Sequence record: OQ031495
Source: Escherichia phage MRostami-2023e
Direction: 5' to 3' (one strand)
DNA: 64,000 bases
Shown: positions 5,886 to 33,827 of the stretch, piece after piece
Layout: each line of letters begins with the position of its first letter
Position numbering within the stretch: position 1 is the stretch's first letter
Program-made: the position numbers and the translations under genes
Notes under the pieces: model-generated
What the model was told of the DNA's origin: nothing
The model's input: the letters and a program-made list of their open reading frames with translations, nothing else
Databases searched by the model: none

Positions 5886-8202
<2,317 letters not shown>

Positions 8203-30109: not shown

Positions 30110-30397
30110 ATGAAAACATATCAAGAATTTATNNNNNNNNNNNNNNNNNNNNNNNNNNNNNNNNNNNNNNNNNNNNNNNNNNNNNNNNNNNNNNNNNNNN
30201 NNNNNNNNNNNNNNNNNNNNNNNNNNNNNNNNNNNNNNNNNNNNNNNNNNAAAGGTACTGTTTACCTAGGTGATGGGTGGTCTGCTAAAAAGGATGGTGC
30301 TACAATCGTTATCTCTCCTGCCGAAGAAACTGCGTTGTTTAAAGCTAAACACATTTCTGCAGCACATCTCAAGATTATTGCTAAAAATCTTTTGTAA
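30110..30397 (+). CDS. ipI: Internal protein I (capsid-targeted, injected; interior masked by N)
   Basis: Starts MKTYQEF (capsid-targeting sequence); C-terminal part KGTVYLGDGWSAKKDGATIVISPAEETALFKA... as T4 IPI from memory. Confidence 0.75.
   Translation: MKTYQEFXXXXXXXXXXXXXXXXXXXXXXXXXXXXXXXXXXXXXXXXKGTVYLGDGWSAKKDGATIVISPAEETALFKAKHISAAHLKIIAKNLL
30133..30250. other. N-masked run (118 nt) inside ipI
   Basis: run of n. Confidence 1.
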
Positions 30398-30457
30398 NNN
30401 NNNNNNNNNNNNNNNNNNNNNNNNNNNNNNNNNNNNNNNNNNNNNNNNNNNNNNNNN
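30398..30457. other. N-masked run (60 nt)
   Basis: run of n. Confidence 1.
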
Positions 30458-31307: not shown

Positions 31308-31823
31308 ATGAATATTTGTTTAGGCAGTACAATTCCTAAGGGTTACGTAATTGATGTCACTACTTGGGAAAATGACGGCGACAACTATAAAACTAAAACG
31401 TTGTTTGGTGTAGAAGAGCATGAGCTCCAACAGTTTAAATATCTTTTGAAGAAATTTAAGAGCCGTCATTCCAGCACTAAAGCTGAACGTTACTGTGGTA
31501 ATACACTATTCAGTGATTGTTCGCTTTTAATCTATGAATACTTGGTTGAAGGATTGTTCTCAGACCAGCTTTATCCAGAATTCATTAAAAAGGTCTTTGA
31601 TATTGAAGTCGACCTTGGTAATAAATCTGAAGAAGACGAATCACGTGTATTTGACCTGTTCCGTGAGAATGGATATTTGGTATCAGAAGGTCTCACTGAT
31701 ATTCTTGGCCATGCTTCTGAATATTATGATTATGATTTCTTGCGTGTAGTTGAATGTGTTGAATTTGCTTATATTGAAGAAGAAATCGTTTTGCCAACTG
31801 TTAAAATGATTGATTTGCTTTAA
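31308..31823 (+). CDS. Hypothetical protein (171 aa)
   Basis: ORF track. Confidence 0.6.
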   Translation: MNICLGSTIPKGYVIDVTTWENDGDNYKTKTLFGVEEHELQQFKYLLKKFKSRHSSTKAERYCGNTLFSDCSLLIYEYLVEGLFSDQLYPEFIKKVFDIEVDLGNKSEEDESRVFDLFRENGYLVSEGLTDILGHASEYYDYDFLRVVECVEFAYIEEEIVLPTVKMIDLL

Positions 31824-31902
31824 GAATTATGTGTTATTATTAATTCATACCCTCTATTACCAAAGGTGCTCTAAAGTGCCTTTCATAATAGAAAGTTATT
31901 TA

Positions 31903-31977
31903 GGCCCTGTAGCTCAATGGGAGAGCTGTCAGCTCATAACTGATAGGTAGCTGGATCGAAACCAGCCAGGGTCACCA
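31903..31977 (+). tRNA. tRNA with anticodon CAU (Ile2-type or Met)
   Basis: Hand-folded cloverleaf: acceptor ggccctg/cagggtc, D stem gctc/gagc, anticodon loop cuCAUaa, T stem gctgg/ccagc, encoded CCA. Confidence 0.75.
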
Positions 31978-31980
31978 ATC

Positions 31981-32057
<77 letters not shown>

Positions 32058-32075: not shown

Positions 32076-32420
32076 ATGAAAGGTAATGTTTACTTAGTAG
32101 TTCATGATTTAACGTTTTATTTTAACGAACATGATACAGTTATTTCAGACCGATTGATTAATTTGTTATACCAACACGCAGATTACATCTATGTTCAAAA
32201 TGAATTCGGCCATTGGAAGTTCATTAAAAATCGTTCTGGGTTAACTAGTTTTGAATACTTTGATCGTAAAGACCTTTTAAACGAAATCCCATTGCAACAT
32301 CGGTTCCAGAAACGCGAATCATTATATTATTGCCGTCATATACCAAACGCCGAATGTGTTAATGAAGCGATTAATCTATGGAGACGGCGTCGAGAGCAAA
32401 TTGATGATATGCCAAAATAA
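32076..32420 (+). CDS. Hypothetical protein (114 aa)
   Basis: ATG with SD gaggaaaat just after tRNA-Arg; longer ORF-track start would overlap the tRNA. Confidence 0.6.
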   Translation: MKGNVYLVVHDLTFYFNEHDTVISDRLINLLYQHADYIYVQNEFGHWKFIKNRSGLTSFEYFDRKDLLNEIPLQHRFQKRESLYYCRHIPNAECVNEAINLWRRRREQIDDMPK

Positions 32421-32700
32421 GAAGCCGGGTCGCTACCGGTAAGTCGTCGGACTGATGTTCCCTGAGTAAGGACTGGTCTTAATAAATCTTTACGATTTGT
32501 TAATATCCCCTTACACCACAGCAGAAACGGCGCACCGAATTATCGATTCGAGGAAATATCTTTGCCGTAAGCCGAGTAGCGTTTTTGACGGAACGTTCGG
32601 ATATGGTCGAGATATGGCCTTTTAAAAATATTGAGTAGCGTCAACTACTTAATAACCGGGTTCAAATCCCGGCGTTTCGTACAAACACTTGCCTTAGCAG
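32421..32700 (+). ncRNA. Non-coding, relatively GC-rich region with tRNA-like T-arm; candidate stable RNA(s) (compare T4 rnaC/rnaD)
   Basis: No ORF >=60 aa on either strand; ccggg-ttcaaat-cccgg at 32656-32672; could not fold a canonical cloverleaf by hand. Confidence 0.3.
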
Positions 32701-32722
32701 GTGGAACCCCGACAAGGTATAT

Positions 32723-32752
32723 AGCCCCTTCCGAAAGGTTGGGGCTTTTTTG
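32723..32752 (+). terminator. Rho-independent terminator
   Basis: agcccc...ggggct stem followed by tttttt. Confidence 0.7.
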
Positions 32753-32760
32753 TATAAATA
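32753..32760 (+). promoter_or_regulatory. Late promoter TATAAATA upstream of the 32796 gene
   Basis: exact tataaata 36 nt upstream of ATG. Confidence 0.55.
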
Positions 32761-32795
32761 TAGTAAACAATAAACCCACTTTCTAAGGACCATCA

Positions 32796-33428
32796 ATGTA
32801 TACTTTTAATGAATTTTTAGCCGAAACGGAAGTAATCACCGAAGCCGGCGTACGTATGACAAAAGAGAAATGGCAAGCTGCTTACGATGCTATTTCTGGT
32901 ACAAAAACTAGTACAGAGTTTTTCAAAAACGTTCAAGCCATGTACGGTATCGACACTTCCAGCCAAAAAGAATATTACAGAGCTTCTAAAGCATTCAAAG
33001 ATATTGTTAGTGGTGGTGTTTCTGCTAAATCGGGTTCGCCTAAAGTAAAACCTGCTCCTACCATTCCTAAACCTGCGACCCCTAAAGCAATAGCAAAACC
33101 TGAGCCTAAGCCTAAGCCTGAAGTAAAAGCAACTCCTAAAGCTCCTGCTCTTAAGTTTGATACTTCTAGCCTGGAAAAAAAATATAAACAACTATCTTCG
33201 CTTGTTCGCGATATTGAATCCGATACATCTTCACTCGTTCGTGAATTCAATAGTCTTCGTAATGGCCAACATATCAACAACCTTGATACCCCAGACCTTT
33301 ATCGTCTTTATTTGACTATCGAAGGTTTGAAGTATACTCAACCACTTCATGATGAGATTAAAGAAAAACTTCGTCAGGCAGGTCGTTTGGCTGCTGACGC
33401 TGCTCAGTATGCAAAAACTCGTAAGTAA
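32796..33428 (+). CDS. Lys/Pro-rich protein with CTS-like N-terminus (MYTFNEFLAE); candidate virion internal protein
   Basis: 210 aa; N-terminus resembles MKTYQEFIAE; PK-rich linker; own late promoter and terminator. Confidence 0.65.
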   Translation: MYTFNEFLAETEVITEAGVRMTKEKWQAAYDAISGTKTSTEFFKNVQAMYGIDTSSQKEYYRASKAFKDIVSGGVSAKSGSPKVKPAPTIPKPATPKAIAKPEPKPKPEVKATPKAPALKFDTSSLEKKYKQLSSLVRDIESDTSSLVREFNSLRNGQHINNLDTPDLYRLYLTIEGLKYTQPLHDEIKEKLRQAGRLAADAAQYAKTRK

Positions 33429-33798: not shown

Positions 33799-33827
33799 NN
33801 NNNNNNNNNNNNNNNNNNNNNNNNNNN
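33799..33827. other. N-masked run (29 nt)
   Basis: run of n. Confidence 1.

Follow-up and report, generated by a model that had tools for sequence, protein, structure and literature searches.

The window analysed here is a stretch of 64,000 nucleotides from Escherichia phage MRostami-2023e (sequence record OQ031495), a Mosigvirus-like phage of the T4 type. A small cluster of two tRNA genes, tRNA-Met(CAT) and tRNA-Arg(TCT), is followed on the same strand by a 114-aa open reading frame (ORF) and then by a non-coding interval, which extends from the stop codon of this ORF up to the next gene at 32796. We conclude that positions 32417-32751 almost certainly make up the 3' part of a tRNA unit and hold orthologs of the T4 RNAs rnaD and rnaC, followed by a hairpin and an intrinsic terminator (Table 1). 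The original prediction had placed a tRNA-like stretch at 32421-32700, after tRNA-Arg. Both its surroundings and its extent had to be revised: tRNA-Arg ends at 32057, with a real ORF in between, and the feature is larger, running from 32417, where the TAA stop codon of the ORF (32418-32420) overlaps the 5' end of rnaD, to the terminator at about 32751.

Table 1. Features of the tRNA and stable-RNA unit, in coordinates of the 64,000-nt window.
Feature	Position	Strand	Basis or remark
tRNA-Met(CAT)	31903..31977	+	Opens the small tRNA cluster; ARAGORN; Rfam tRNA 59.4 bits
tRNA-Arg(TCT)	31981..32057	+	ARAGORN; Rfam tRNA 71.1 bits
114-aa ORF, between tRNA-Arg and rnaD	32076..32420	+	ORF list; phrog_3355, E = 1.7e-50
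rnaD ortholog (T4 species 2 RNA), 120 nt	32417..32536	+	Alignment to T4 misc_RNA rnaD
rnaD hairpin H1, GCCGG / GUCGCUA / CCGGU	32424..32440	+	RNAalifold; minimum free energy (MFE) fold
rnaD long-range stem, 5' strand GUCGUCG	32443..32449	+	Predicted to pair with CGGCG(C)AC at 32528-32535
rnaD variable hairpin, apical part of the rod	32466..32514	+	RNAalifold/MFE
rnaD long-range stem, 3' strand CGGCGCAC	32528..32535	+	Followed by one unpaired C, the end of the RNA
rnaC ortholog (T4 species 1 RNA), 139 nt	32543..32681	+	Alignment to T4 misc_RNA rnaC
rnaC acceptor-like stem, 5' strand CGAUUCG	32544..32550	+	Pairs with 32673-32679
rnaC central domain, helices 3-6, in D-loop position	32554..32615	+	Four helices, about 65 nt, apical loop UGAC
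rnaC GG, directly 5' of the 3' strand of the AGG/CCU stem	32616..32617	+	Candidate mimic of tRNA G18 G19
rnaC long arm, in anticodon-arm position	32629..32654	+	10 bp in the window, 9-10 bp overall
rnaC T-arm, CCGGG / UUCAAAU / CCCGG, 5 bp	32656..32672	+	Agrees with the T-loop consensus; stem covaries
rnaC acceptor-like stem, 3' strand CGUUUCG	32673..32679	+	Directly 3' of the T-arm
rnaC 3' tail UACAA, in place of NCCA	32680..32684	+	TACAA in 22/23 sequences, TCCAA in Marfavirus
Hairpin CACUUGC-CUUA-GCAGGUG, 3' of rnaC	32686..32703	+	MFE; kept in T4
Intrinsic terminator AGCCCC-UUCCGAAAGGUU-GGGGCU, then U-run	32723..32751	+	MFE; annotation of relatives

The terminator marks the end of the tRNA and stable-RNA transcription unit and is annotated as such in the relatives G2469 and G2133. 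A simple terminator scan gave no match here, having overlooked the element because of its internal U.U mismatches, and the terminator is instead evident from folding and from the annotation of relatives. A MotA-box-like middle promoter motif is located upstream of tRNA-Met at 31814-31840, and a late-promoter TATAAATA for the next gene directly 3' of the terminator, both of these being pattern matches only.

Two small stable RNAs of T4, rnaD and rnaC, have been known since the 1970s. The T4 record (NC_000866) lists them as the misc_RNA features T4s001, which is rnaC ("species 1 RNA", 139 nt), and T4s002, which is rnaD ("small, stable RNA; species 2 RNA", 119 nt), with rnaD directly after tRNA-Arg and rnaC after rnaD, all on one strand. 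The alignment of the window to this T4 segment covers rnaD from its first base, rnaC, the downstream hairpin, and the terminator, with 105 identical positions of 119/120 in rnaD (nhmmer E = 2.2e-36) and 137/139 in rnaC (nhmmer E = 1.7e-42 over the full model). The ends given for both RNAs in Table 1 are carried over from the T4 annotation. As in T4, rnaC lies in a tRNA unit, on the same strand, 3' of rnaD and 5' of the hairpin and terminator; the overall order and strand of tRNA-Arg, rnaD, rnaC, hairpin, and terminator are shared, and the predicted folds are alike. The two phages differ in that the tRNA cluster of the window is reduced to Met and Arg, in that the 114-aa ORF stands between tRNA-Arg and rnaD, in the fourth position of the rnaC T-loop (A in the window, G in T4), and in the sequence of the apical hairpin of rnaD. 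Thus rnaD, which in T4 lies immediately downstream of tRNA-Arg, is preceded in the window by an ORF and not by a tRNA. Since an ORF is found between tRNA-Arg and rnaD in other Mosigvirus relatives as well, we regard this as a lineage variant and not as an argument against orthology.

Going by sequence, predicted fold, and synteny, the RNAs of the window belong to the T4 rnaC and rnaD families, and their identity was already known. The stretch is present in about 800 T4-like phage records, with vB_EQ1 as the best match (100%), and the records of RB6, T4, T4T, RB5, and Aplg8 label it as rnaC or rnaD. This distribution, together with the covarying helices described below, puts the stretch far beyond chance. 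RNAC and RNAD of T4 are late RNAs validated by Northern blot (PMC9697503, a transcriptome and proteome paper of 2022), and their function is called unknown in a 2010 review (PMC3014915), in the same 2022 paper (PMC9697503), and in a paper of 2025 (PMC12685909).

The sequence features on which the original prediction had been built are present. The T-arm hairpin consists of ccggg at 32656-32660, ttcaaat at 32661-32667, and cccgg at 32668-32672, with cgtttcg following at 32673-32679. With 0.08 copies expected by chance in 64 kb, the pattern GGTTCRAWTCC is present twice in the window; the other GGTTCAAATCC, located at 6796 within a 611-aa ORF, lacks a flanking stem and is a chance occurrence. The inability to build a complete cloverleaf was likewise borne out. 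ARAGORN at default settings found no tRNA or tmRNA beyond tRNA-Met and tRNA-Arg, and these two were also the only features to pass the gathering scores of Rfam 15 in the whole window. When the region 32300-32900 was searched permissively, the Rfam tRNA model (RF00005) reached 13.9 bits (E = 7.9) at 32608-32680, against a threshold of 29, and the other Rfam matches reached 12-16 bits against thresholds of 39-70, most of them being the terminator hairpin. The check by covariance model which had been proposed thus turned out negative, with no Rfam family matching. Of the two options that had been offered, an unusual tRNA or a stable RNA, the second is upheld by the orthology to T4 rnaD and rnaC, and the first fails with ARAGORN and Rfam; the description as tRNA-like is apt for the rnaC half.

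The consensus structure of rnaC was derived with RNAalifold from 23 distinct sequences plus one helix added by hand, giving 39 pairs in 8 helices. These sequences come from at least eight genera (members of Tequatrovirus, Mosigvirus, Gaprivervirus, Kagamiyamavirus, Winklervirus, Karamvirus, Moonvirus, Gelderlandvirus, Kanagawavirus, and Marfavirus), with uncultivated contigs among the collected homologs. In this consensus, 97.9% of the cells are paired, compared to 41-51% when the 3' partners are shifted by 1-3 columns, and 17 pairs carry compensatory changes; the observed values were matched in 0/500 shuffles. The MFE structure of the window sequence taken alone is the consensus fold (-50.2 kcal/mol, z = -4.43).

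Of the seven positions in the acceptor-like stem, five are Watson-Crick pairs and the remaining two are conserved U.U mismatches. The third pair of this stem is A-U in 11 sequences and G-C in 12, and the other four are invariant. Within it, the D-stem position is taken by a 3-bp stem, AGG/CCU, which encloses the domain formed by helices 3-6; these are 94-100% paired, with compensatory changes in 9/17 pairs. An A-rich single-stranded linker leads from the D-stem-like helix to the long arm, in which six of the nine counted pairs show compensatory changes and the 6-nt loop CGUCAA (32639-32644) is invariant except for CGCCAA in Marfavirus. A single unpaired A separates the long arm from the T-arm, whose third pair is G-C in 12 sequences and U-A in nine. 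The T-loop reads UUCRARU in most phages and UGCAUCC or UGCAUGC in LC53, L008, L016, and L017; because the T-loop of this one lineage is not T-loop-like, a strict need for the geometry of the tRNA elbow is weakened. In T4, the T-loop of species 1 RNA contains T and pseudouridine. The mature T4 RNA ends after the UA of the tail, the annotation closing at ...CGUUUCGUA.

We hypothesize that the GG at 32616-32617 mimics G18 G19 of tRNA. Its first G and the second base of the T-loop (alignment columns 76 and 125) are G.U in 19 sequences and C-G in three, the latter being the three sequences with the altered T-loop, and the neighboring columns 77 and 126 are G-C in 23/23. We put this mimicry forward as a hypothesis only, because the switch from G.U to C-G was probably one evolutionary event.

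The fold of rnaC is therefore that of a tRNA with two expansions, supported by covariation. Its likeness to a canonical tRNA (RF00005) lies in the terminal stem of seven positions with an adjoining 5-bp T-arm and UUCRAAU loop, in the GG ahead of the 3' strand of the D-stem-like helix, and in its location in tRNA arrays with tRNA-like spacing. In contrast to a tRNA, it has two U.U mismatches in the acceptor stem, a D-loop domain of about 65 nt on a stem of 3 bp, an "anticodon" stem of 9-10 bp with a 6-nt loop, and a variable region of 1 nt, and it encodes UACAA instead of CCA. A D-arm combined with a 5-bp anticodon stem and a 7-nt loop, as expected of a tRNA, is thus not found in rnaC.

For rnaD, a consensus was computed with RNAalifold from 12 sequences. 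The RNA is predicted to form a rod, with a 5' hairpin, an extended, irregular helix sealing the 3' end, and a replaceable cap, a model which is less well supported than the fold of rnaC. The 5' hairpin, H1, has the consensus (A/G)CCGG-GUCGCUA-CCGG(U/C), in which the closing pair is A-U in eight, G-U in three, and G-C in one of the 12 sequences and the 7-nt loop GUCGCUA is invariant. Both strands of the long-range stem are invariant, and the stem is for this reason beyond covariation testing. The pair adjoining it (U-A in seven sequences, A-U in four, U-U in one) is the only flanking pair to covary. Past this stem lies an asymmetric internal loop that tandem G.A pairs may flank. Sequence variation in rnaD is concentrated in the middle hairpin, with almost none in the 5' 47 nt and the 3' 22 nt: the apical hairpin occurs across phages in at least three unrelated sequence versions, each predicted to fold at one place. 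A weak rnaD-like core was also found in Klebsiella phage F48 (nhmmer E = 3.5e-5). A resemblance of rnaD to a hammerhead core (CUGAUG...GAAAC) was rejected, as the base after CUGAUG varies (U, C, G) and no Rfam family matches.

Outside the arrangement seen in T4 and in the window, the two RNAs are found apart. In EcS1, LC53, RZH, Pet-CM3-4, Moon, NM4.3, and Melville, the tRNA arrays include rnaC, at a distance of 5-8 nt from the upstream tRNA's CCA and of 0-8 nt from the tRNA that comes next. No rnaD was detectable beside rnaC in EcS1, in Karamvirus and Moonvirus phages, in Melville, or in Kanagawavirus phages, nor in the rnaC-carrying tRNA arrays of LC53, RZH, Pet-CM3-4, and NM4.3. Conversely, rnaC is cleanly absent from the Dhakavirus phages UP19, IME341, and CUA3, in which rnaD is directly followed by the hairpin and terminator that T4 and the window have past rnaC. 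Given the Dhakavirus and EcS1-type arrangements, rnaC and rnaD are separable and are therefore independent cassettes that travel with tRNA genes. We also considered a kissing interaction of the H1 loop of rnaD, GUCGCUA, with the complementary UAGCG in rnaC, and discarded the idea that it is required, since either RNA is also conserved where the other is missing.

An exact 20-base rnaC pattern had 0 matches in 185,579 bacterial and archaeal genomes, and a 24-base rnaC pattern retrieved only three metagenome contigs, all of them Marfavirus-like or L008-like; on these grounds, no homolog in a host or prophage and no deeper diversity was found. Loose scans of viral contigs (TTCGAGGA..GCGTCAAC and GCGTCAAC..CCGTACAA) were also performed; among the matches listed, L019 alone is real by nhmmer, and the others are chance.

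Several other readings of the stretch were weighed against that of two stable RNAs. The most specific of these takes positions of about 32588-32682 for a real class-II-like tRNA-Lys(UUU) whose variable arm is long and whose gene encodes no CCA, and we consider it very improbable. It arises from the relative G2133, where ARAGORN reports a 94-nt tRNA-Lys(ttt) at the orthologous site, a call which is annotated in that record. The window gives the same fold, with an 8-nt anticodon loop, at a relaxed ARAGORN threshold, and in T4 and the Mosigvirus group an internal CGGAACG can indeed make seven pairs with CGUUUCG. However, with default settings ARAGORN makes no such call in either the window or T4, the Rfam tRNA score falls short as stated above, and the CGGAACG pairing has no compensatory change, its third pair turning from G-U into an A.C mismatch in 12/23 sequences; moreover, all 500 shuffles gave an acceptor pairing at least as good. 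We take the call in G2133 to be an artefact because of this missing compensation, these mismatches, and the shuffles being no worse. In contrast, the true 5'-terminal strand does covary, from A-U to G-C. Both the D stem and the anticodon stem of the tRNA-Lys fold are weak, and it is a competing helix, AUAUCU/AGAUAU, that finds support across genera. Likewise, the flanks of the "UUU anticodon" lie in the AGG/CCU stem and the triplet itself varies freely between genera (UAC, UUG, CUU, UAU); CUUUUAA was accordingly rejected as a tRNA-Lys anticodon loop, having no flanking stem of its own.

That the stretch codes for small proteins instead is more improbable still. No ORF of 60 aa or more is present, in agreement with the roughly 280 nt without ORFs that had been described, and the only candidates are TTG-initiated frames of 42 aa (32497-32625, + strand) and 34 aa (- strand), which are not conserved in relatives. 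This reading owes what plausibility it has to those frames and to annotation, as CDS features have been placed here in relatives, among them vB_EQ1 with its 100% identity, and many GenBank records have a "hypothetical protein". Nevertheless, neither frame has an ATG start, the ORFs are missing in EcS1, RZH, PEi26, and F48 though the RNA is conserved, the substitutions are compensatory for base pairs, and the T4 record has RNAs and no CDSs at this place.

A tmRNA-like RNA, or a tmRNA in two pieces, made up of rnaD and rnaC together is the least credible of the three. The tRNA-like domain of tmRNA, and likewise the bacterial and phage Y-RNA-like YrlA RNAs, carry a module of acceptor-like stem and T-arm on other helices, with maturation presumed to be by RNase P, and the acceptor-like stem and T-arm of rnaC resemble the tRNA-like domain of tmRNA. 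At a relaxed threshold, ARAGORN even reports a "tmRNA" over 32426-32680. This report comes with "Tag not identified" and is not made at default settings, and Rfam yields no tmRNA match even up to E 10; rnaC and rnaD match neither tmRNA nor any Y-RNA-like family in Rfam. Both differ from tmRNA and YrlA-type RNAs in having no tag reading frame and no encoded CCA, a conserved UACAA tail of rnaC standing in the place of the latter, and each occurs alone in other phages.

Returning to the two stable RNAs, a possible path to their mature forms can be proposed. They would be co-transcribed with the tRNAs, and the acceptor and T-arm module of rnaC would direct host RNase P to the 5' end of rnaC. The same cut may also set the 3' end of rnaD, 6 nt upstream, after exonucleolytic trimming down to its terminal helix. 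In T4, the dimeric precursor of species 2 and species 1 is cleaved by RNase P. Both RNAs would then accumulate with their ends buried in helices, and we expect them to be stable because these ends are base-paired.

In its predicted form, rnaC cannot decode, as its loop has 6 nt on a stem of 9-10 bp, and it is unlikely to be charged, as no CCA is encoded and the acceptor stem has U.U mismatches. We therefore tentatively consider rnaC a tRNA mimic, neither chargeable nor decoding, which may occupy or titrate a host or phage factor that recognizes tRNA, with CGUCAA as the putative recognition surface; we hold this to be possible, though far from established. Such a factor might be, at a guess, an enzyme that modifies or processes tRNA, or a nuclease that targets it. 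For rnaD we can likewise only guess at a role, which may be independent of rnaC and possibly related to host range. Speaking against such roles, T4 mutants that have lost the tRNA region still grow on laboratory hosts.

The main alternative to a function in trans is that the stretch acts in cis only, as a structured 3' end, spacer, or processing platform of the tRNA operon, with the stable RNAs as by-products, which we judge to be unlikely. In T4 and in the window the elements do close the tRNA unit on its 3' side, right before the terminator, and in tRNA arrays rnaC acts as a tRNA-shaped slot; nor has a phenotype been assigned to rnaC or rnaD in 50 years (PMC9697503, PMC3014915). On the other hand, rnaC is internal and not terminal in the tRNA arrays of other genera, and its conserved inner domain of about 65 nt exceeds the needs of a processing signal. 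The loops CGUCAA and UGAC of rnaC and GUCGCUA of rnaD are invariant or nearly so while the stems covary across genera, a pattern that speaks for recognition of the loop sequences in trans, over and above folding. When a T4-like phage was evolved on E. coli ECOR34, every line came to share one SNP in rnaD (PMC12685909); this SNP, which arose during host adaptation, also counts against a role in cis only and hints at a host-specific role of rnaD.

We would like to note that the identification itself is ordinary, the species 1 and 2 RNAs of T4 being already in the T4 reference annotation. What is added here is a comparative secondary structure for rnaC and rnaD, their behavior as cassettes, and the exposure of widespread mis-annotation, such as the "hypothetical proteins" of vB_EQ1 and the false tRNA-Lys of G2133. 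In most T4-like records the locus is either unannotated or occupied by spurious "hypothetical proteins"; automatic pipelines cannot find rnaC or rnaD because Rfam has no family for either. The folds, tRNA-shaped for rnaC and rod-shaped with a replaceable tip for rnaD, offer concrete mutational targets, as does the separability of the two RNAs.

A more far-reaching version of the trans reading, which we regard as speculative and rather doubtful, is that rnaC may be a three-dimensional mimic of tRNA, with an expanded D-loop and anticodon stem and an elbow contact between GG and T-loop, serving as a portable decoy or inhibitor of a host tRNA-recognizing enzyme or of a tRNA-targeting defence nuclease. 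Its loop would be Asp-like, with GUC but without U33, and rnaD would be an independent determinant of host range. If true, such a decoy would explain the movement of the rnaC cassette among the tRNA arrays of the Tevenvirinae, and would at last give a function to an RNA that has been an orphan for 50 years.

The tRNA-Lys(ttt) of 94 nt annotated within rnaC in the GenBank record of Escherichia phage G2133 (L007 969-1062) was reproduced by ARAGORN; nevertheless, the tRNA-Lys(ttt) fold is rejected on covariation. A 1-nt deletion together with a single A-to-G change suffices to tip the tRNA caller in G2133 rnaC. The rnaC T-loop itself reads UGCAUCC or UGCAUGC, not UUCGAAU, in LC53 (L004) and in the uncultivated contigs L008, L016 and L017, and the altered loop is accompanied by replacement of a G by C in the GG that precedes the 3' strand of AGG/CCU, the 3-bp stem at the D-stem position. 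It is possible that these two changes represent tertiary covariation.

Within the window's rnaC, the 9-nt direct repeat GAGTAGCGT is present twice, once as the 5' strand of the inner hairpin and once as that of the long arm (at the anticodon-arm position), a hint of internal duplication. A second exact GGTTCAAATCC falls within a 611-aa ORF on the minus strand, lacks a flanking stem and is a chance match. N runs of 8-440 bases mask the window in 13 stretches (e.g., 30133-30250, 30398-30457 and 33799-33827); the rnaD/rnaC stretch is untouched by them, and two lie less than 2.5 kb away.

Features of the window in and around the rnaD/rnaC stretch, with motif copies
Feature	Window position	Placement	Assignment or basis
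Candidate MotA-box-like middle promoter motif, TTTGCTTTA-N12-TATTAT	31814-31840	upstream of tRNA-Met	regex match only
114-aa ORF	32076-32420	between tRNA-Arg and rnaD	phrog_3355, unknown function
GAGTAGCGT copies	32574-32582; 32633-32641	within rnaC	
Hairpin CACUUGC-CUUA-GCAGGUG	32686-32703		
Candidate T4 late-promoter TATAAATA	32753-32760	directly after terminator	regex match only
210-aa ORF	32796-33428	downstream of candidate late-promoter motif	phrog_2280
Second GGTTCAAATCC	6796-6806	within 611-aa minus-strand ORF	

In the T4 record (L001), the order in the direction of transcription is tRNA-Arg, rnaD, rnaC, the opposite of that in a 2025 paper (PMC12685909), which places rnaC upstream of rnaD; the position within rnaD stated there for a shared SNP may therefore have been counted from the wrong end. 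Whereas T4 has no gene between tRNA-Arg and rnaD, the window carries the phrog_3355 ORF inserted there, with a stop codon that overlaps the 5' end of rnaD.

In Klebsiella phage F48 (L257), a weak rnaD-like core was observed downstream of tRNA-Asn (205-281; nhmmer 3.5e-5). A further ~270 nt of non-coding sequence (290-556), which could hold further structured RNAs, separates this core from tRNA-Met and rnaC. At the other end of the window's stretch, the hairpin and terminator form a conserved module, which in the Dhakavirus phages (L258-L260, about 825-900) lies directly 3' of rnaD and marks a clean presence/absence boundary of the rnaC cassette.
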